A stretch of DNA of 64,000 nucleotides from Escherichia coli (GTDB lineage: Bacteria; Pseudomonadota; Gammaproteobacteria; Enterobacterales; Enterobacteriaceae): assembly GCF_050920415.1 (NCBI RefSeq), contig NZ_CP169309.1; one strand, written 5' to 3'. The translations under genes and the position numbers were made by a program. Shown here in pieces: positions 14,581 through 41,838 of this stretch. A model generated the notes under the pieces. That model was not told the DNA's origin. It saw nothing but the letters and a program-made list of their open reading frames with translations, and did no database searches. How positions within the stretch are numbered: position 1 is the stretch's first letter; each line of letters opens with the position of its first letter.

Positions 14581-15044
14581 TTGGCACCGTGTTTCTGGGT
14601 AAACAAACGAAAGGCATCCAGCGTCTCTTCACTGACATGGTGCTCCATGCCTTCCGCGTCGCGACGAGCGATTTCCGGGCTGACGCCCAACACCAACAAG
14701 AAATTTTCGACTATCTGATGTCGCTCGCGGCTTTCCTGCGCCAGTTTCTCTCCTTCTGCCGTTAAAAACACGCCACGCCAGGGGATCATTTCAATCAGCC
14801 CCATGGTTGCCAGTCGTTTGAGCATTTTAGCCACCGTCGGTTGCGAAACGCCCAGACGAGCAGCCATGTCCACCTGACGAGCTTCCCCCACTTCCCTGAT
14901 CAAGTCAGAAATCAGCTCAACGTAATCATCAATAAGCTCGCGCCGGTGTGCCTCTCTGACCTGGCGGAACCCTTCAACGTGCTCTTCCACATTCACTAAC
15001 TGCGTCACTTTTTTTGCTGTTGGCGTACCTGCGCGACGACTCAT
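14577..15044 (-). CDS. mntR: Manganese-responsive transcriptional regulator (DtxR family)
   Basis: 155-aa ORF with N-terminal HTH and DtxR-like metal-binding C-terminus. Confidence 0.93.
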
Positions 15045-15149
15045 TGTGCTTCCTCATTATGGTGACGCATACATAGCGTTCTCATTTCGTGCGCACATTG
15101 TAAACCAGAGTTGCGAAGGTACAAAAAATTAACGTTTTAGCAATAGCTA

Positions 15150-15160
15150 TATAATATAGC
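15150..15160. repeat. Left copy of the 11-bp direct repeat tataatatagc (putative attL core)
   Basis: Exact 11-bp match to 47440..47450; host-like sequence to the left, AT-rich foreign sequence to the right. Confidence 0.6.
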
Positions 15161-15409
15161 TTTGGACCCCAATAAAAACCAAATGAAAACAATTAATTAT
15201 GAAAGAAATATCATTGTAATGTCGCAAGAATGTCGCAGAATTTTGAATTTTACATCAAACAGAAATCTTACATAAGTCGTCGAAAAGGAAAACTACCAAT
15301 ATCTTTTCGGTGTTTCCTTTCCCCAAATGGAATTTTTCCTGTTATGCTAATATTCGTTTTAAGGTGTTGATAACTAACATTACACAAAGCAATTAGAACG
15401 GATACTAAC

Positions 15410-16984
15410 ATGGCTAAAAACGCAAAAAACGAGAAACCAAAAAAGTTAGCTTATAGAATAAAAAGTATTAATATTGAAAAATTAAAAGGTATAAATAACT
15501 GCCCTATTTCCTTCCCAGCAGACAGGTCTGTAACTGCTATAATGGGAATTAATGGTTCAGGTAAATCAACAATATTGCACGCTCTATCATGTGTTTTCAA
15601 ACCCAAAGAAAAATCATCCCAAGAAAATAATAGATTTTCTGACTTCTTTACCCCTCACAATGAAAATAACTGGCAAGATAGTAAATTCTCAGTAAAATTT
15701 CGAGCGGGAGAGATAAAAAACAATGGTAATAAAGTCTTTTTTGAAGAAATAGATAATGAAGAAAAGAAAGATATTGTTTATGGCAAGGATAAAAGGTGGA
15801 AACCAGTTTACGCAAGAAGACTTGAAAGAGAATCTATATATATAGGATTACAAAATCTTGCAACGTTAGCTGACAATACAGGAGCATCAAGATACTCAGA
15901 ATATGAAAGAGTAGATATTTATGATAAAGATATAAAGAATCAAATGATATTAGCTCTGAATAAAATCTTAGATGCAGATTACAACGATTTGTTTGAATGC
16001 CGCACCATTAAGGGAAACAAAAAATTCATAGGCATGGTTAAAAACGGCATTGAGTATACAGAACATACTATGGGTGCTGGAGAAAAGAGAGTCTTTGAGA
16101 TAGTTAAAAATGTTTATAATGGAAAGTTAATGCCCAATGGTTTTCTAATCATTGATGAAATAGATGTTTTGCTACATGAAAGAGCTTTTCATGAATTAAT
16201 TAATTTTCTTATCGAAGAAAGCAAGTCTATGTGTTTTGAGGTTGTTTTCACAACACATAGAGAATCCATAATAAAGTTTAAAAATCAAATCAATATAGTA
16301 AGTATATGGAACATAGGGAATGGAATAGAGGCTTATCCCGGCGTTTCTGCGGATGCTCTTCGACAGATATCCAATGTAGAACCTGATATGGTCAATGTGT
16401 TTGTAGAAGACAACTTAGCAAAAACAGCACTAAATATTTTAGTTGAAAGTGAAGGTATGAATGAACAAGTTGATATCTCGCTTTTTGGTTCGGCTGAGAA
16501 TTCAGCTGTAATTTTGTCAGGACTTAAATTAACTGGCAAACGAATTGATACAAGCCTGGCAATTTTAGACGGTGATTACTATATTACCCTCCCTGAAAAG
16601 ACCAAAATGGTTGATAGAGTGTTATCTGGAACAGATAAAAAAGTAGAAAAAAAAGAAGTCTTATCAAGAATATTCCAATTCAATTTAGATGTGACTGACG
16701 TCAAAGGCTCTCCAGAAAAAAACCATCGTGATTGGTTTGAATCTATAGACGAAAACAATATTTCGGAAAATGATAAGACAATGTTTCTTAACCTGAAAAA
16801 ACATTCTACAAGTATTGGTGCTTTAACTGATTATCATGAATATTATCCAGAGTTAGCTCGAAGGTCAAAATTAGATAATATTGAGTACAAAGTTTTGAAT
16901 TATATTAGTAAGTATAGTAATAAATGGGATTTTTACATAAATGATATTAGAAATGAAATAAAAAAAGCAATTGCAGCGATCTAA
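15410..16984 (+). CDS. ABC-type (AAA_21/AAA_15-like) ATPase fused to a C-terminal Toprim/DUF4435-like domain; OLD-family or fused-PARIS-like candidate defence protein
   Basis: Walker A GINGSGKST, signature-like GAGEKR, Walker B LIIDEIDVLLHE, H-loop TTH; C-terminal half has VFVEDN and ILDGDY resembling Toprim E and DxD; about 30 percent GC; own terminator. Confidence 0.6.
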   Translation: MAKNAKNEKPKKLAYRIKSINIEKLKGINNCPISFPADRSVTAIMGINGSGKSTILHALSCVFKPKEKSSQENNRFSDFFTPHNENNWQDSKFSVKFRAGEIKNNGNKVFFEEIDNEEKKDIVYGKDKRWKPVYARRLERESIYIGLQNLATLADNTGASRYSEYERVDIYDKDIKNQMILALNKILDADYNDLFECRTIKGNKKFIGMVKNGIEYTEHTMGAGEKRVFEIVKNVYNGKLMPNGFLIIDEIDVLLHERAFHELINFLIEESKSMCFEVVFTTHRESIIKFKNQINIVSIWNIGNGIEAYPGVSADALRQISNVEPDMVNVFVEDNLAKTALNILVESEGMNEQVDISLFGSAENSAVILSGLKLTGKRIDTSLAILDGDYYITLPEKTKMVDRVLSGTDKKVEKKEVLSRIFQFNLDVTDVKGSPEKNHRDWFESIDENNISENDKTMFLNLKKHSTSIGALTDYHEYYPELARRSKLDNIEYKVLNYISKYSNKWDFYINDIRNEIKKAIAAI

Positions 16985-16991
16985 ACCTCAT

Positions 16992-17020
16992 AAAAGGCGT
17001 AATTTATACGCCTTTTTTTA
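16992..17020. terminator. Rho-independent terminator after the ATPase gene
   Basis: aaaggcgta...tacgccttt stem followed by a run of T. Confidence 0.75.
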
Positions 17021-17181
17021 AGGTTTAAATTATAGTTGCTAATTTCTACTCTTTGTTCCCTCTGTTCGTGCACGTTTCAGGTAGTAAGCTCTCCATCGAA
17101 CCATAGAGATTGAACGCTTTGATTTTTTTTTACATACTGTCTGAAGCTCATTTACTAAGTATTGATAGTCAGGATGACAAC

Positions 17182-17808
17182 ATGACCTCCTACGATGAAC
17201 TTAAAGAATGCATCCGCCTTGAAGTCATTGGCCATGACAAATCCTTTTCATGGCGTAAAGCGTTACTTCGTACCCGACGCAACCAGAAGAAGCACTTCCT
17301 GTTCTGGTGGCGTATCGCTTCATGGCTCTATGGCCAGAATAGTAAGTTCAAAAAGCGCATTGCCCGCAGAATTGAAAACCGCCTCAAGTACCTGCATAGC
17401 GTTGATATTTCGCTGTCATGCAAAATCGGCAAGGGTTTAAACATTGCTCATCTGAACGGTATTGTCATTACTGACAATTGCGTGATTGGTGATTTCGCCG
17501 ACCTGAAGCAAGGCATCACCATAGGGTTACGCACCGACAGTGCCGACGCGATGATAGTCATTGGTGATCATGTTGATATTGGCTGTAATTCGTCCATTCT
17601 GGGCGGCAAGGTTACGATCGGAAACAATGTCACCATTGGGGCGCATTCACTGGTACTTCAGAACATCCCCAGCGACACCGTTTATAAAAACAAGATCACG
17701 CCGGTGTATACATCCAAACTACCGCAGCAGGAATATCAGGAAAATCGGCCTTTTGTCACTGGCAAGGCGATAAAAGAAGCGTCCCGTTCCGCAGAAGCGG
17801 TGCTGTAA
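17182..17808 (+). CDS. Hexapeptide-repeat (left-handed beta-helix) acetyltransferase, serine/sugar O-acetyltransferase-like
   Basis: Tandem hexapeptide repeats (GIVITDNCVIGD, VIGDHVDIGCNSSILGGKVTIGNNVTIGAHSLV); start chosen at ATG 17182 with AGGA RBS, alternative start at 17110; AT-rich. Confidence 0.65.
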   Translation: MTSYDELKECIRLEVIGHDKSFSWRKALLRTRRNQKKHFLFWWRIASWLYGQNSKFKKRIARRIENRLKYLHSVDISLSCKIGKGLNIAHLNGIVITDNCVIGDFADLKQGITIGLRTDSADAMIVIGDHVDIGCNSSILGGKVTIGNNVTIGAHSLVLQNIPSDTVYKNKITPVYTSKLPQQEYQENRPFVTGKAIKEASRSAEAVL

Positions 17809-18186
17809 TTTCGCTGAACAAATTTCAGTTATGAAGATTGCATAAATTTACGTGCAGCCCGCGCCAGCTCTTACAAGCGGGCTAATCTCTATAATGTCTG
17901 GCTTATCTCCCAACGATCCACGAACACCGCCTAAAATATAATTTTCCCTTTATTATCTGTGCGTTATGATTTTACACCGATCCTTAACAGATCCTCTTTA
18001 CTGAAAAAAATGAAATTTCTTTCAATCATTTCAGTTCCTGTTCTCCGCAAAGCCGCCAGTAATGGTGCGGTCTGGCGCTCTGGTTTGTAGAAAAATAAAA
18101 CTGAAAAAATTTCCAGATCCAGAAACCGCAGGCGGGTGCGGTGTAGCGCCGTTTTTGTCTGCGAAAGATTTATTTTGTCGGCGCAT

Positions 18187-18230
18187 CGCAGCGCCAGCGC
18201 AGCGCCAGCGCAGCGCCAGCGCAGCGCCAT
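18187..18230. repeat. Four tandem copies of an 11-bp GC-rich unit (cgcagcgccag)
   Basis: Read directly: cgcagcgccag x3 then cgcagcgccat, in a noncoding spacer between the cargo and the last phage gene. Confidence 0.8.
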
Positions 18231-18352
18231 GCGCACGATCTTTTATGTGTGTTGCGTTGGGTTAATTTGTTGCCTGAAGTGCTGAGGGCGCGTTCTGCTG
18301 CGTCTGAGGAAGGGTATGAAAAAGCCCGCATTATGCGGGCGTGTTGTCATGG

Positions 18353-20056
18353 TCAGGCAATTATATTCTGGTACTTGCTCCGGGTCTGCCCTGCTTTCGT
18401 CGCCGTCTGTACGAACGCGTCAGCATTGGTTGGCGTCCCAACAGTGGGGTGTGAATGGTTCGCGCATTGCTGCGCCAGCTCTGCCAGTAAATCAATGGTA
18501 TCCAGCATCATGGTCAGGGCGTTGATACTCTCGCTGCCAATATGGACAGTTGCCCCCATGACCTGCTGACCGCCAGCGGCCACTGATTTACGCAGTGCGG
18601 CAATCTTCTCTGTCAGGCTTTCGCCAACCTCCACGGCTACAGCACCGCCCACTTTAGTGGACTGCTGTCCTGCTATGTCCGTTTCTTCGTTTCCTTCAAT
18701 ACTGGCCAGCCTGTTTCCTTTCACCGCCTGGCTATAATCACCGGCGCTTACCTGCTGGATGGCTCCGGCCAGCAGTGTGGCGGTTCCCAGTACCGTGGTT
18801 TTATCCGTGGCTTTCACCGTGGTTTCACGGCTGACCAGTTCGCGCTGTTCCGTATCGGCTTTTACGGTTCGCGCCATCGATGTTTCGCTGATGGTCTGAT
18901 CGGTCTGCCTTACCCAGTCGCCCGCCTGAGTCACCCTCTGGGATACTTCTTCCCGCTGCTGCTGCAACTGTTCACCGGGTTTAACGTCCGGCAGACTGGT
19001 GCCATCCGGTAGCGTCTGCCTGATAAAAGGTTTATCCGGTCTGCCTCCCGTGAATGCAACCTCAACCAGCGTCCCTTCTGGCGGAAACTGAAACATACCT
19101 GAATCATTCCCGGCCATTGGTACCGGCAGCGGCACCGCTGAATAAACAGGCGTCTGATTGTCCGGGTTTCCGTCTGCGTCAAGCAGCTGCACGTCCACGG
19201 CGTAACGTGGCCGGAAGGGATCGGCAAAGTTACCGCTTTTTACCGGCTCTGAATGCGCCACAACTCTGGCCATCTTTGGCAAATGAAGCCCGGATGCCAG
19301 TTCCGGGTAATGGCTTTCAATCTGCCGTTGCGCCGGTGTTTTCTGCAAAGGTTTACCCGTTGCGCGGTTTCTCGGCGTCCATGTGATCGCCATCGCGTCA
19401 TTAGTCAGGTGAACTTTAGTCACGCGTTCACCGTTCATCTCCACCCCTGGCCGCATAGTCTGGATCACTGGTAATGTCACAGAGTTACCGCCAGCAGCCC
19501 CCTGGCTGAACTCTGACGGGATTTCTACGGGGCGACCGGCAAATAATGACTTTTCTGCGCCGCCGACGTAAAGCGAACCATCAGGCAACTGGTACCAGAT
19601 GTAATCCTGGATACTGAACGCCCTTCCCAGATTGTTCAGCAACTGATAACCAGTACCGTTATGGGTAAAATGTGGGATGGGGGTATCGCTGTACTGTGCA
19701 TCAGGCACACTGACCGTGATCCCGCTGTTTTCTTCCAGCCAGCTGGCAACCTCGCGTAAAGTTGGATGTTGAAATGAGCACGGCCACATCCTTTCAAATA
19801 CACCTGCCAGCTCACGAATGAACAGACGCTGAAAACCGTTTTCAGCGGGCTGCGATCGCTCCACATACCCCGTAAACCAGCGCAAAAGCAGATCGGTATA
19901 CCCCACATCCAGCCGCACCAGTTTTCCGGTGTAATCGGTTGTTGTCTCTGCGGTGATGAAGCCCCGGCCGCAGCTGTTCAGCTCCAGTACCAGGCTGGCA
20001 TCCACCAGGTGAACTTCATCAGTTGAAAGGTAAAGGCGTTTTACTGGTTTCATCAT
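18353..20056 (-). CDS. Phage protein, last gene of the tail operon; possibly baseplate hub / late-control-D-like (uncertain)
   Basis: 567-aa ORF translationally coupled to the upstream gene, phage-like GC content; function inferred from position only. Confidence 0.35.
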   Translation of the reverse strand: MMKPVKRLYLSTDEVHLVDASLVLELNSCGRGFITAETTTDYTGKLVRLDVGYTDLLLRWFTGYVERSQPAENGFQRLFIRELAGVFERMWPCSFQHPTLREVASWLEENSGITVSVPDAQYSDTPIPHFTHNGTGYQLLNNLGRAFSIQDYIWYQLPDGSLYVGGAEKSLFAGRPVEIPSEFSQGAAGGNSVTLPVIQTMRPGVEMNGERVTKVHLTNDAMAITWTPRNRATGKPLQKTPAQRQIESHYPELASGLHLPKMARVVAHSEPVKSGNFADPFRPRYAVDVQLLDADGNPDNQTPVYSAVPLPVPMAGNDSGMFQFPPEGTLVEVAFTGGRPDKPFIRQTLPDGTSLPDVKPGEQLQQQREEVSQRVTQAGDWVRQTDQTISETSMARTVKADTEQRELVSRETTVKATDKTTVLGTATLLAGAIQQVSAGDYSQAVKGNRLASIEGNEETDIAGQQSTKVGGAVAVEVGESLTEKIAALRKSVAAGGQQVMGATVHIGSESINALTMMLDTIDLLAELAQQCANHSHPTVGTPTNADAFVQTATKAGQTRSKYQNIIA

Positions 20057-20601
20057 TAACCCAAAGCATCATTGACGGGCTTCAGCACCTTGCGTTCAAA
20101 CCACGTCAGTTTTTCTTCATCTTCTCCGGCAGACTGGCCACCGGACTGTCCCGCACTGCCGGTAGTCTGTTTTTTTGCGGTCGTCTTACCTGTTGCCCTG
20201 GCCTCTCGCTTTTCCTGCACGCTGATATGTTCCGCCAGTGTGAATGTCACCAGCCAGGCCATTTTCCCGTCCTGCTGGGGTGCATCCAGCATTCCGCTGA
20301 ACGTTGCTTCACGAAAATTAACAGCACGGGCAACTTCATGCGCCACGCGGTACTTCTGACGATTACCACTGGCATCGGTAGCACTGGCCAGCTCAAAAAT
20401 ACGCTTCAGTATTTCAGGCTGTTTAAAAGGTATTTCACCGCTGATCCGCAGTTCCTTTCCCTTTGCTCCCTGCTCTGATTTTGTTGTGGCGCTGGTCTGG
20501 CCGGACTGATCTTTATCCTGAAATTGCTGTGAAACAGTCACCCGCATGTTTTTCAGCTGGATGGCCTCGCCATTAAGCGCCAGTGTCGGGATCGAAGTCA
20601 T
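20056..20601 (-). CDS. Phage protein of unknown function (tail operon)
   Basis: 181-aa ORF with overlapping start and stop to its neighbours; no motif recognised. Confidence 0.4.
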   Translation of the reverse strand: MTSIPTLALNGEAIQLKNMRVTVSQQFQDKDQSGQTSATTKSEQGAKGKELRISGEIPFKQPEILKRIFELASATDASGNRQKYRVAHEVARAVNFREATFSGMLDAPQQDGKMAWLVTFTLAEHISVQEKREARATGKTTAKKQTTGSAGQSGGQSAGEDEEKLTWFERKVLKPVNDALG

Positions 20602-21298
20602 GAATCATTCCCTTTATTCCATCAAGATTATCGCCAACCAGCATCATGGCAGCGGTGTAAACGGCAGACTGCTGCGGAATGTCCTTCACCAGTTCCAGTA
20701 ACGTGGTGCCGGTGTCTCCGCTGGCAGTAAAAACCCACACTCTGGCACTCTTTCCCTGTAAATCATTCAGGCCGCTGGCTACATCACTGATAAGCTGGTC
20801 ACGCAGCTGCGTGAACTCGCCCAGCTGTTTTTTCAGCCCTTCGATATCAAACCCGGCATCCGCCGCCTTTTGTGCCTGGCTGATTGCCGTAGCAGATAAA
20901 GCTGCCCTGCTGGTTGGTACAGACAGCGGAATGGACGCAGGTAACGCTGCGGCGGTTTTCGCAGGGATCTGCATCTTTTCAATAGCCAGCGCTGCGGCGG
21001 ATTGCGCCAGTCGTTTGACCTGCGTGAATGCCGGGGCGGGGAAAATCCCGACCAGGTTATTCAGGCTGGCCATAAAGTTTTCCTGTGTCTGTCCGGTGAC
21101 CATCATAATCACCACGTCCGCATTCCCCCCAGTTCCGGCCAGGCGTTCAGCAAGATAGCGAACGGCATTAACCGGGCTGAGATATGCCCCGTTCGCAGTC
21201 TGCTGTCCCAGCCCATAAATCCACGGATGCGCAGGAACGATCGAACAGTTCAGCGCAGCAACAGAATCCGTGAAGGCCAGACGTGCTTCACGCCACAT
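20573..21298 (-). CDS. Phage protein of unknown function (tail operon)
   Basis: ORF downstream of the tail fibre assembly gene; start uncertain (21298 or 21334). Confidence 0.4.
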   Translation of the reverse strand: MWREARLAFTDSVAALNCSIVPAHPWIYGLGQQTANGAYLSPVNAVRYLAERLAGTGGNADVVIMMVTGQTQENFMASLNNLVGIFPAPAFTQVKRLAQSAAALAIEKMQIPAKTAAALPASIPLSVPTSRAALSATAISQAQKAADAGFDIEGLKKQLGEFTQLRDQLISDVASGLNDLQGKSARVWVFTASGDTGTTLLELVKDIPQQSAVYTAAMMLVGDNLDGIKGMIHDFDPDTGA

Positions 21299-21875
21299 TT
21301 CCAGGCACCTCCGGCCACACAATTTCCGGCGCATCTTCCGGTTGAATACGGTTCAGTAAAACGCGGTATTTTTTCCAGGCGGTAAGCAGCAGTGCTTCTT
21401 CTTCAGTCGCCATGTCTAAATCAACGGCATCCTGCAATGTGGCAATGGCGTCATTGGCCTGTTTAAGCAGTCTTTTCTTTTCGGCGTCTGCCTCGCTGAC
21501 TAATGCAATTCGCATGGCCTCCGCATCATCCACCCACGCCTTACCATTCCATTTTTGCCAGGCATTAGCCGGTGCAGACGTGGTTGTCCCTTCCGGGTAA
21601 GCGCCTGGCTCGGTGATCACCAGTTCATTACCGTTTTCTGTATCAAACACCACCTCACCACGATGATCCTCACGGGAAATCCATCTTTGCTTCTCTGAAT
21701 CAAAAATTGCCACAAACCCCGCTTTGATTACCGGTGGTTTTATTGTGGTGCAGTTAGCTGGTAGTCCGGTATGCGCAGGTATAAAAGCGTCACCCGAACC
21801 AATAAATTCATTCGTGTCGGAACGCAGGTTATAAACAGTAACTATTTGATCGGTTTCACTCATTTTAAAAGTCAT
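21288..21875 (-). CDS. Tail fibre assembly chaperone (gpG/Tfa-like)
   Basis: 195-aa ORF immediately after the tail fibre gene with the typical acidic, helical Tfa C-terminus. Confidence 0.65.
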   Translation of the reverse strand: MTFKMSETDQIVTVYNLRSDTNEFIGSGDAFIPAHTGLPANCTTIKPPVIKAGFVAIFDSEKQRWISREDHRGEVVFDTENGNELVITEPGAYPEGTTTSAPANAWQKWNGKAWVDDAEAMRIALVSEADAEKKRLLKQANDAIATLQDAVDLDMATEEEALLLTAWKKYRVLLNRIQPEDAPEIVWPEVPGNVA

Positions 21876-38735: not shown

Positions 38736-40757
38736 CTATAACCACCCCGGCCATAGCTCCTGCAATGGTTCGTTTCGTGTTTCCTTCAACCGCCCATTGC
38801 GGTAAATCAGCGCCCCCTGACCAAATATCAAACCACTACCCCGCAGGAGAATGGCTATTTCTTCATCGGAACCCTCAAAACCCCGACTGCGTAATTCCAG
38901 TTTTAACCGTCTGCGGGTTCCTCCCTCCGTACAGTTATTGACAGAACTCCAAGGGGCGGCGTTGCCGCCAGAAAAACCCGCCTCCGCTGTCGCTTCGGCC
39001 AACTTCGCAACCTTTTGCCACTTAACAAGACGGGTGCAAACTTCTGAATCAGGAACCAAAGGAGAATAAACACCCTGTACGCGCTGCACGTCCTCCGCGT
39101 ATTCGTTGCCCTGTTCCGTAATTTCATAGGCCAGACGAACAACCAGATCACGGCGGGCAACCAGTGCACCGCCCTGCGCCTGGGTATATGCAGCCCAGTC
39201 CCCGACATCAGCAGCGGCCAGAACCGCATCCATTCTGCGATCTGTCAGTACCTGATCCCTCAACCGACGCAGCTCACGCCAGACGGTTACCGGCGCGCCA
39301 CCAATCTGCTGAAACTGGCGAATACGCCAGCGTGAAGCCCACGCGGAAACGGACTTAGCCATATCACGCAGGTTTTCGCCGGTTTCTTCATCCTGTTCAC
39401 CATCCAGCGCAAAACCATCAATATTTTTTGAAATGTATTTCGCGATGTAGCCCGTGGCCGAACCTTTGGCGGGATCGATAGCTTCAACATGAAAACGCGC
39501 CTTCAGCGCCTTTTCAGATTGCAGTTCTTCAGAATCAGTAATTCTGGCGTGATAACAAAGAATATCGCGTACCGTGTCCACGTCCTGCGGACGCATAAAA
39601 AGCAACATATGCCAGTGCGGTGTCCCGTCATGGTGAGGCTCAACAACCCGAAACCCAAAGACATGAATACCCGCACGCGAGATCGCTGCGCGTGCTTTTG
39701 CCCATACGCCACATAAATAGCGCTGAGTATCCTGTGGTGTACTTCCATCCCACTGTGAAACAAAGCCCCCTTTGCTGTGCACCGCATGGAATCGCGATGG
39801 CGCGGTGATGGTGTAAAACTCACCGGCCAGCCCTTCTTCATTGGCCATATCTTCAAATCCTCTCATTCTTACCATTAGTTCACAGCGACGGATCGCCGGA
39901 TTTGCAACGCTGCGGTGCACCATGCTGTCCAGTGCAATGCGCAGCCCTTCATCATTCAGCAGATCAAACTTTTTGAAGAACTCCAGATTCCGCTTTTTCT
40001 GTTCTATCCATTCCTCTAGGGTTTTACGGGATACATAAGCACTGGCCGCTTTTTGTACCTGCCCCACCGCGATGGCCATATGTTCGCGCTGCGTATCACG
40101 CGCACGTTTAAGACGCAGGTACCACCATTCCGGCGCCATCATGCGCAGTATCCCGGATTCCGCCTTACGCGTTTCCAGTTGACCTTCATTGGCCTCATGA
40201 TCAGCCCAGTACGGCGGCTGGTTATTCAACATCAGGCAACACGCACAAAGATGGCGGTATGATTCCAGGGTTCGGCGGTGCAGTTCTCTGGCGTCGTCAG
40301 TGCCGGATTCAAACTGTTCGGTGAAGTCATAAAGTGACTGGGAAATCCAGCCAGATACCTGACCAGCCAGTTTTTTAAGATCAAGACGGTCTAATGACGG
40401 CAAGCGCTCCAGCGACTTACCAAAAGGAAGATCAGCAGCATCAGCGGCCAGAGAGTAACGCGCAGCCACTTTTCGCAGACGAGGCAATACATTCTCGCCA
40501 ATAGTTTTACGCAAGAATGTATTGGCTCGGCGACGCCCGTCACGGCCAGAAAAAAGCTTTTCGTAACGACGGCCAAAATACCCGGCTAACCAGTCGGGTA
40601 TCTCATGAAGGTACTTTGAGCGCCATTCGTAATCCTGCGGGTTAACAGCCCACAGGCGGCGTTCTGTGATAGTCGCGTCTGCCGGTGTGCCTGGTGCGAA
40701 AGTTTCCCGCCTCCAGGCATCAACGGTATAGCATTGTTCATTTATTGCCAGCGTCAT
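38736..40757 (-). CDS. Rolling-circle replication initiator / nickase (P2 gpA-like, HUH endonuclease)
   Basis: 673-aa ORF with HUH motif PHWHMLLF and downstream catalytic tyrosine region (GYIAKYISK). Confidence 0.8.
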   Translation of the reverse strand: MTLAINEQCYTVDAWRRETFAPGTPADATITERRLWAVNPQDYEWRSKYLHEIPDWLAGYFGRRYEKLFSGRDGRRRANTFLRKTIGENVLPRLRKVAARYSLAADAADLPFGKSLERLPSLDRLDLKKLAGQVSGWISQSLYDFTEQFESGTDDARELHRRTLESYRHLCACCLMLNNQPPYWADHEANEGQLETRKAESGILRMMAPEWWYLRLKRARDTQREHMAIAVGQVQKAASAYVSRKTLEEWIEQKKRNLEFFKKFDLLNDEGLRIALDSMVHRSVANPAIRRCELMVRMRGFEDMANEEGLAGEFYTITAPSRFHAVHSKGGFVSQWDGSTPQDTQRYLCGVWAKARAAISRAGIHVFGFRVVEPHHDGTPHWHMLLFMRPQDVDTVRDILCYHARITDSEELQSEKALKARFHVEAIDPAKGSATGYIAKYISKNIDGFALDGEQDEETGENLRDMAKSVSAWASRWRIRQFQQIGGAPVTVWRELRRLRDQVLTDRRMDAVLAAADVGDWAAYTQAQGGALVARRDLVVRLAYEITEQGNEYAEDVQRVQGVYSPLVPDSEVCTRLVKWQKVAKLAEATAEAGFSGGNAAPWSSVNNCTEGGTRRRLKLELRSRGFEGSDEEIAILLRGSGLIFGQGALIYRNGRLKETRNEPLQELWPGWL

Positions 40758-41614
40758 GCGCTGGCCTCAGAAGTCGCCGGTAAAGGCCATTTAAGAATCA
40801 GCTCTGCCGCCGTTTTCGGGCTTGCAGCTGCCGCACCGACACTACGCGGCGCATTAACCTTTACGGCGTCAAACCCTGCATACAGGTAATGCACCATTTC
40901 CAGATCGCTGTTTGACGCGACAACGGGAATCCCACGTTCAGCCAGTCGGCGCAGTTTACGCGCCAGCCGCCCCTGATCCATGTGCGAAAAACCGCGCTCA
41001 TGGTAAGCGGTGAAATTGTCGGCATCAGTCAGATAAGGCGGATCACAGTAAACAACGTCACTCCCGCCCCGAACCAAATCGAGCGTTTCTGAATAGTGGG
41101 CAGTAATGAACGTTGCGCGTTTTGCTTTTTCAGCAAAGGCGCGGATTTCATCAGCGGGGAAATAAGGCTTTTTGTACTTACCGAACGGGACGTTGAACTG
41201 GCCTCGTCGATTGTATCGGCACAGACCATTGAAGCAGTGCCGGTTTAGGTAAAGGAAACGCGCAGCAGCTTCAACGGATTCAGAACCAAAGGATTTACCT
41301 GACTGATTGAAAGCATCACGTACCGCGTAATAGAAAATTGCGCGGCTTTCTTCACCACCTAATGAACCGGCTGTAAACAGGCTCTCCAGTTCATTCAGCA
41401 GCGCATCAGAGTGATACGCCATCGCCTTATAAAGATTAACCAGATCAGGATTCACATCTGCGATCAGATATTCATCATATTCCGTATTCATCATGACGGC
41501 GCAGGAACCTGCGAACGGTTCAACCAGGCGCTTTCCTTCCGGCAAATGGGGACGCAACTGCGGCATAAGGCGGGCTTTGCTGCCCACCCATTTAAGCGGT
41601 GTTTTTATTGCCAT
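40754..41614 (-). CDS. DNA adenine methyltransferase (Dam-like, N6-adenine, DPPY motif)
   Basis: LKWVGSK N-terminal SAM-binding region and DPPY catalytic motif. Confidence 0.85.
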   Translation of the reverse strand: MAIKTPLKWVGSKARLMPQLRPHLPEGKRLVEPFAGSCAVMMNTEYDEYLIADVNPDLVNLYKAMAYHSDALLNELESLFTAGSLGGEESRAIFYYAVRDAFNQSGKSFGSESVEAAARFLYLNRHCFNGLCRYNRRGQFNVPFGKYKKPYFPADEIRAFAEKAKRATFITAHYSETLDLVRGGSDVVYCDPPYLTDADNFTAYHERGFSHMDQGRLARKLRRLAERGIPVVASNSDLEMVHYLYAGFDAVKVNAPRSVGAAAASPKTAAELILKWPLPATSEASA

Positions 41615-41838
41615 GCCGCGCCCCCTTTGCTGCAAATCGCTGCGGCTTCTTCGCGGATTAACTCAACGATTTCCGCTGCGCTTAGACCTTCATTGGCCGC
41701 ATGAGTGGCCAACTTATCCAGACGGGTGGAACACAGATCAGCAGCTGCGGCTTTACCTTCCTGCGTGGCTTTGGTGAGCATGGCCAGCAGGTCAGTGCCT
41801 GATTTTGTTGCGGGTAAATTCTGACGTGTCATGTGCAT
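41605..41838 (-). CDS. Hypothetical phage protein
   Basis: 77-aa ORF coupled to the methylase gene. Confidence 0.4.
   Translation of the reverse strand: MHMTRQNLPATKSGTDLLAMLTKATQEGKAAAADLCSTRLDKLATHAANEGLSAAEIVELIREEAAAICSKGGAAWQ

Follow-up and report, generated by a model that had tools for sequence, protein, structure and literature searches.

The stretch of DNA analysed here, called the window in the following, comprises 64,000 nt of an Escherichia coli chromosome and carries a prophage of about 32.3 kb between the genes mntR and mntS. To the right of the prophage, the host sequence is 100% identical to that of strain MFDS1022581, in which mntR and mntS are adjacent and the site is empty (NZ_CP169399.1, 3343000–3353500). 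The sequence of this empty site follows the window up to position 15160 and resumes at 47440, where the two parts overlap by 11 bp, TATAATATAGC; therefore, the prophage occupies positions 15150–47450. Upstream of mntS, the 11-bp att core is embedded in a palindromic, AT-rich stretch. Both the genes of this prophage and their order agree with those of the ESSI-2-like Peduoviridae (genera Quadragintavirus, Seongnamvirus and Evevirus), which makes it an ESSI-2-like member of this family, of the Quadragintavirus type. From left to right it consists of attL, the cargo genes, a 544-bp spacer (17809–18352), the baseplate, tail and head genes on the minus strand, the large terminase and portal genes on the plus strand and, further to the right, replication and Dam methylase genes, CII, CI, the integrase gene and attR. 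Terminase subunits and portal are of the P2 type (PF05944 for the small subunit, PF03237/PF17289/PF06056 for the large one, PF04860 for the portal). The product of the last gene in the tail operon has weak Phage_base_V and Gp5_C matches and corresponds to gp01 in the records of ESSI-2-type phages; the terminator of this operon has a fold z-score of -4.0 and is conserved in relatives. All features are listed in Table 1.

Repeats are found at other places of the prophage, too. Tandem AATGTCGCA repeats were detected by TRF just inside both prophage ends (15218–15241 and 47322–47346), and by their sequence they look like arm-type binding sites of the integrase. Furthermore, a tandem repeat with a period of 27 bp (3.2 copies, 71% matches) lies at 21953–22039 within the tail-fibre gene, where it encodes His-rich repeats.

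Table 1. Features of the prophage, its cohesive-end region and the tandem array (positions refer to the window).
Feature	Position	Strand	Remarks
attL core TATAATATAGC	15150–15160		left prophage boundary adjoining mntR; from empty-site comparison
SMC_N/AAA_15/AAA_21 ATPase, cargo	15410–16984	+	about 30% GC; Pfam/PHROG
hexapeptide acetyltransferase, cargo	17110–17808	+	Pfam/PHROG
cos left arm (right end of virion DNA)	17997–18131	none	strongly conserved; repeated CTGAAA motifs
inferred cosN GCGGGTGCGGTGTAG	18132–18146	none	from record ends, breaks in virion assemblies and sharing with satellites
proximal cos right arm, CGCCGTTTTTGTC ... TTTATTTTGTC	18147–18179		satellite homology stops within, at about 18177
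predicted hairpin	18177–18239	+	outer stem GUCGGCGCAU / AUGCGCACGAU, then CUUUUAUGUGU
GC-rich element between TTTATTTTGTC and the conserved GATC	18180–18236		57 bp in the window
tandem array	18187–18230	none	two extra units correspond to the gap 18187–18208 in the alignment to contig L013
displaced family-conserved GATC	18237–18240		at +91 in the window versus +69
Rho-independent terminator of the tail/baseplate operon	18324–18340	-	GCCCGCATAATGCGGGC, then TTTTTC
last tail-operon gene, baseplate hub/spike-type protein	18353–20056	-	phrog_2258, E = 5.6e-276
Dam gene, D12-class methylase	40754–41635	-	
integrase gene	46312–47352	+	just inside attR
attR core TATAATATAGC	47440–47450		right prophage boundary upstream of mntS; from empty-site comparison

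The array itself is located in the 544-bp spacer and reads CGCAGCGCCAG three times, followed by CGCAGCGCCAT. These three exact units and the variant fourth one, which were the core of the original prediction, are also what TRF reports (18187–18235, period 11, 4.4 copies, 97% matches, score 89), and a repeat search of the window gave four in-register copies, head to tail at a spacing of 11 nt. If one mismatch is allowed, the unit occurs seven times in the window, four of these within the array, where 2.18 ± 1.49 occurrences are expected; none of 100 shuffles gave seven. The over-representation of the unit in the window is thus due solely to the array, and four adjacent copies are far beyond chance. 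The units abut without any unique spacers between them, which excludes a CRISPR array, as had been stated before. The surroundings had been described as an otherwise AT-rich spacer. This holds for the left side (GC content 0.40 at 17800–18099) but not for the right side (0.55 at 18100–18399). Open reading frames of 43–106 aa overlap the array on both strands; we rejected these as coding sequences because their products are just the repeat translated into low-complexity sequence and because the 22-bp length difference described below would shift their frame. A scan of positions 15000–19000 against Rfam (E up to 10) yielded best scores of 17–23 bits, compared to thresholds of 35–100.

The array begins 41 bp to the right of the inferred cohesive-end site of the phage. 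Three observations converge on the sequence GCAGGCGGGTGCGGTGTAGCGCC at positions 18128–18150. The record of Cronobacter phage ESSI-2 ends with ...GCAGGCGGGTGCGGTGTAG and starts with GCGGGTGCGGTGTAG. The resulting terminal overlap of 15 nt is what filled-in cohesive ends produce, which points to GCGGGTGCGGTGTAG as cos. The second observation comes from ev129, ev015, ev239 and ev040, virion-derived assemblies of E. coli phages from another laboratory (PMC6969025). All four break inside the same 23-bp stretch, and in four out of four records a Nextera adapter abuts the break, the right end of ev015 being free of adapter. The third is sharing with satellites. Among 5,426 complete E. coli genomes, 481 match the region 18100–18360, but about 430 of these do so only over approximately 39 bp centred on the cos core. 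The three core-only matches that we inspected (in strains SK1144, LS4 and H105) all belong to P4-like satellites with the order DUF927 primase, Ogr/Delta-like protein, cos match, sce7726/sce7725 cargo and integrase, and their homology to the phage is confined to positions ~18000–18177 of the window. When the satellite of SK1144 was searched for a P2-type cos, none was found. The wider spacer of 551 bp is matched by only about 50 complete E. coli genomes. Satellites with the ESSI-2-type cos would hence be much more common than candidate helpers, if the remaining core-only matches are satellites as well. A shared cos is the sole homology between P2 and P4 (PMC9122126), and our own comparison of P2 with P4 gave the same one-sided sharing around their cos.

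From the terminal overlap of ESSI-2, the breaks in the virion assemblies and the sharing with satellites we infer that cosN lies at approximately 18132–18146; this evidence is indirect, from the termini and adapter junctions of database records. A position beside the portal gene, where P2 has its cos, was considered and rejected, since a P2-type cos has no match anywhere in the window and the single core of the ESSI-2 type is the one at 18128–18146. A search of the literature for this cos sequence, or for the cos of ESSI-2-type phages, returned nothing relevant. The original prediction had placed the array at the boundary between the cargo and the last tail-operon gene; this is right in outline, but the cos site within this spacer had been missed.

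The public records of the four virion assemblies deserve a comment in this context. The RefSeq/ENA entries of ESSI2_ev129, ev015, ev239 and ev040 retain Nextera adapter sequence, terminally or, in ev040, internally. Adapter is present at 1–43 and 30879–30927 in ev129 (NC_049394.1), at 1–48 in ev015 (NC_049395.1) and at ~29625–29666 in ev040 (NC_049393.1), whilst adapter or chimeric sequence makes up 1–116 and 29127–29203 in ev239 (NC_049392.1). The ev239 record opens with these ~116 nt of unrelated, apparently chimeric sequence, and an annotated 'hypothetical protein' of ev129 (30741–30926) overlaps adapter sequence.

With the cos core as anchor we collected unique flanking sequences, 125 from the right side and 121 from the left. 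Over the latter, most positions of the left arm from -150 to -1 contain 1–2 bits of information, and this arm is also common to the P4-like satellites. On the right arm the information peaks at +2 to +13 and at +24 to +31, followed by a poorly conserved segment from +33 to +66 (0.1–0.6 bit) with a weak CCAGCG motif at +48 to +53. Homology to several relatives and to the satellites stops at positions 18177–18183 of the window, just left of the array. Behind the poorly conserved segment comes a GATC at a rather fixed place. It is found at +68, +69 or +70 in 82 of the 110 phage-type unique flanks, which we define by a following homologue of the baseplate gene (49–97% aa identity to that of the window). 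It is absent in 26, most of which apparently represent a distinct subtype; in one flank (the IMG/VR contig L037) it is at +66, and at +91 in the window alone. Judged from these alignments, the length of the spacer between cut site and GATC looks constrained, with the window as the single outlier, by 22 bp. Altogether, four GATC sites around cosN are conserved in position throughout the family, at -168/-167, -157/-156, -30 and +69; their counterparts in the window start at 17979, 17990, 18116 (18116–18119, at -30) and 18237. We found no description of these conserved sites or of the +69 spacing in the literature searched. The satellites of the SK1144 type have neither the GC-rich element nor the GATC at +69. 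Provided that, as P4-like elements would be expected to be, they are packaged via this cos, the segment beyond approximately +32 would not be essential for packaging.

On its left side the cos region is bordered by cargo that varies among the relatives. In two of the E. coli chromosomes compared and in ev015, ev239 and ev040, the slot between attL and cos has other contents, such as a reverse transcriptase, a DUF6338 protein, an abortive-infection protein or acetyltransferases. This comparison identifies the segment from attP to cos as a hotspot for cargo, in parallel to the defence hotspots that adjoin cos in both P2 and P4 (PMC9122126). A conserved hairpin at 17856–17885, AGCCCGCGCC...GCGGGCT, follows just downstream of the cargo and is retained in relatives with other cargo (Combat13F7, L010); it is probably either a terminator on the cargo side or the border of the conserved cos module. 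There is also a second variable slot, between cos and the baseplate gene, which contains a 110-aa gene in three relatives (L006–L008, ~3550–3885) and an acetyltransferase gene in ev040 (29969–30523); the window has no gene there.

How the array came about can be read from its relatives. The right-flank allele of the array has eleven other carriers: three E. coli chromosomes, the phages ev129 and ev015, three IMG/VR contigs (L009, L010 and L037), one Citrobacter MAG (L011) and two metagenome contigs (L012 and L013). The distance from TTTATTTTGTC to GATCTTTTAT, which is 57 bp in the window, is 35 bp in ten of these eleven, corresponding to two units. In L037 the element is 32 bp long, that is, a 3-bp deletion of the two-unit form. 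Most commonly, the two-unit form is a quasi-palindrome, GGCGCAT-CGCTGCGC-CA-GCGCAGCG-CC-ATGCGC. L009 and L013 have a T-to-A variant of it, CGCAGCGCCAG CGCAGCGCCAT, whose tandem units form a direct repeat that is perfect over 10 bp (10 of 11 bases identical). L013 is at the same time nearly identical to the window: over positions 15106–22796 the alignment of 7,691 columns shows one mismatch (at 20163) and one gap of 22 nt (18187–18208), exactly two units. Therefore, the array is most likely a very recent slipped-strand expansion from two to four units (+22 bp), and what has been expanded is a GC-rich, lineage-specific spacer element on the right side of the cos of this prophage. An assembly error is unlikely, because the precise gain of two units is shorter than a read.

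Expanded alleles were not found elsewhere. An exact scan of IMG/VR gave no array of at least three units, a right-flank scan of genome and metagenome contigs gave three loci, all with two units, and the three carriers among the complete E. coli genomes have two units as well. Nor do approximately 124 other unique cos flanks contain any other tandem array. A slipped-strand variable tract, one of the possibilities named beforehand, is thus appropriate as a description of the event, with four units against two and a difference to L013 of exactly 22 bp, but not in the sense of a hypervariable locus, as alleles with one, three or more than four units are missing. The same copy number in all relatives, together with the lack of any junction or regulatory signal, had been named as the outcome that would speak against a meaning of the repeat. 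The relatives indeed share one copy number, to which the window itself is the exception, but a cos junction and terminator-like signals are present.

The expansion probably proceeded in two steps. A T-to-A change would have converted the ancestral palindrome CGCTGCGC-CA-GCGCAGCG into the perfect direct repeat, and replication slippage, probably aided by formation of the GC-rich hairpin, would then have added two units. The main consequence would be one of geometry, the family-conserved GATC and T-tract being moved from 69 to 91 bp off the cut site. Since 22 bp correspond to about 2.1 helical turns, the rotational phase is roughly kept, and the outer stem of the hairpin as well as the CCAGCG motif at +48 to +53 are retained. 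With the geometry shifted but phase, stem and motif kept, the mutation is probably neutral or mildly deleterious for packaging. The conserved spacing between cosN and GATC, which suggests constraint, sits uneasily with a neutral expansion. As for the array, we infer that it has no dedicated function of its own, whereas the ancestral hairpin, whose stability ranks near the top of the family, could be a candidate for one.

Such a function might be transcriptional. The predicted hairpin has a stem of up to approximately 20 pairs, followed by CUUUUAU. Folded as RNA it reaches -37.4 kcal/mol in the window, compared to -26.1 for the two-unit T form and -21.0 for the A form; the respective values for DNA are -24.7, -17.8 and -14.1 kcal/mol. 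Only on the plus strand does it have the shape of a terminator, so that folding predicts a possible intrinsic terminator there; a role on the minus strand was rejected because the run downstream of it is A-rich, not U-rich. The GC-rich hairpin could accordingly act as a plus-strand Rho-independent terminator or insulator, stopping lysogenic transcripts from the cargo or integrase side that cross cos and would run antisense into the tail operon, and the expansion would merely lengthen its stem. That the stem-loop is stable and stands directly before CUUUUAUGUGU, that outer stem and T-run are retained in the window and in nearly all two-unit relatives, and that cargo genes lie upstream on the same strand agrees with such a role. 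A consensus scan also flags 18219–18234 as terminator-like, but this is only a sub-hairpin of five pairs with the T-run 6 nt off. Furthermore, 370 nt separate the hairpin from the closest upstream stop codon on the plus strand, and further hairpin/T-run sites (17856–17885 and 18133–18157) occur within this distance. The fold z-scores of the hairpin are modest (-1.4 to -2.2), the stems of ev129 and Combat13F7 are weakened without compensatory changes, and RNAalifold found no consensus structure for 60 family members. The fixed distance to cosN is not explained by a terminator either. We therefore regard this role as a minor rival to slippage, rather unlikely although the two do not exclude each other. 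The hairpin is confined to the lineage of the window and not typical of the family. A family-wide hairpin or dyad in the segment from +33 to +66 was likewise rejected: RNAalifold gave no structure, and the best inverted repeats are scattered and barely longer than in shuffled controls.

Other readings give the repeat a role of its own or a different origin. A protein-binding array, as suggested by the original prediction, would offer one site per helical turn to the small terminase subunit or to a host factor, each additional unit adding a site. The period of 11 bp is close to one helical turn, the array lies within the cos right arm, and the unit contains the CCAGCG that is weakly conserved at +48 to +53 in the family. 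The relatives, however, have just two units, which form a quasi-palindrome and not an array; an iteron-like series of at least three units is not conserved, and other lineages and the satellites have no units at all. The inspected P4-like satellites, assumed to be packaged via the shared cos, are entirely without the element, the spacer sequence is poorly conserved across the family, and the strongly conserved candidate recognition motifs are situated on the opposite, left arm of cos. This suggestion was thus not borne out, and we consider it very unlikely. That an exchange of cargo or tail modules left a recombination scar or a module junction here appears quite improbable to us. Some observations would fit it: homology to many relatives ends at 18179–18183, just left of the array; on the way from cos to the baseplate gene some relatives possess an additional gene; and the cargo on the other side of cos differs strongly from one relative to the next, in line with the hotspots of P2 and P4 (PMC9122126). 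Diverged relatives nevertheless keep the length and the order of motifs (CAGCG near +49, GATC at +69), which marks the segment as homologous sequence that has diverged and not as a junction. The only difference of L013 at the array is a whole number of units, the signature of slippage and not of module recombination. What stands of the proposed junction is that the array is 41 bp from the virion ends and close to the stop of homology at 18177–18183; the segment itself is homologous filler in a cos arm of conserved length and not a scar.

Two further possibilities take the geometry of cos as their starting point. The array might be a phase-variable contingency switch that tunes packaging competence via this geometry. 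A repeat array within a spacer whose length otherwise varies by no more than ±1 bp would suit a switch, as would the other indel (-3 bp) of L037 in the same element. Contingency loci have many copy-number alleles among close relatives, but the twelve element carriers comprise ten two-unit alleles, one 3-bp deletion and the four units of the window, that is, a single expanded allele and no intermediate or larger ones; besides, four units of an 11-mer are a short tract for frequent slippage. Such a switch is therefore exceedingly unlikely. More speculatively, the cos right arm could be a molecular ruler that holds the GATC and T-tract at 69 ± 1 bp from the cut, with this GATC as one of four sites read or marked by the phage Dam methylase. 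The array of the window, longer by 22 bp, would then be a spacing mutant or a slippage switch that alters packaging competence or the exploitation by P4-like satellites. We hold this to be a long shot. The preferred reading remains a recent slippage event in a spacer element.

As such, the array is an ordinary slipped-strand duplication, a familiar type of mutation. With minisatellite or VNTR-type polymorphisms it has in common the short head-to-tail units, the allele differences by whole units and a pre-existing perfect direct repeat as substrate. It differs from such loci in not being hypervariable, as there is one expanded allele, in a spacer that is otherwise conserved in length.

Known packaging sites offer several parallels to the site next to it. 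The cos of phage lambda has a cosQ-cosN-cosB architecture, in which position-specific elements flank the cut site. The ESSI-2-type site is alike in that both arms beside the cut contain elements of defined position, which makes their spacing important, but there is no sequence similarity, and equivalents of the R sites or the IHF site were not identified. At the pac site of phage P1, Dam methylation of clustered GATC motifs controls cleavage. Here, too, GATC sites of conserved position flank the packaging cut and the phage encodes a Dam-type methylase; on the other hand, ESSI-2-type phages are cos phages and do not package by the headful, and the four GATC sites are dispersed. The conserved sites and the phage methylase together raise the possibility of a methylation-sensitive packaging as at P1 pac.

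The closest comparison is to P2. The cos sites of the P2/186 phages and their P4 satellites (Ziermann and Calendar 1990, cited in PMC9122126 and PMC9594776) have a cohesive-end sequence of 19 nt, GGCGAGGCGGGGAAAGCAC. Both types of site share a GC-rich cohesive end and go together with P2-type small and large terminase subunits and portal. Phage and satellite have cos alone in common, mainly one side of it, and a cargo hotspot adjoins in both cases. They differ in sequence and length, GCGGGTGCGGTGTAG with its 15-nt record overlap versus the 19 nt of GGCGAGGCGGGGAAAGCAC, and in position: the P2 cos adjoins the portal gene Q, whereas that of the ESSI-2 type has the attP-proximal cargo on one side and the baseplate gene on the other, and about 19 kb separate it from the portal gene. 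Thus, the ESSI-2-type site works like the cos of P2 but is a different sequence class.

The repeat itself, a private and recent indel, matters little. Of more use are two results obtained along the way, the mapping of cos and the conserved spacing. The cohesive-end site of ESSI-2-like Peduoviridae, for which we found no description in the literature searched, has now been located, and unlike that of P2 it is not beside the portal gene. A type of P4-like satellite (three out of three inspected of about 430 core-only matches in E. coli) carries this ESSI-2-type cos and not the cos of P2. Finally, the allele of the window breaks the conserved spacing between cosN and GATC; if this spacing is functional, the allele would be a natural test case.
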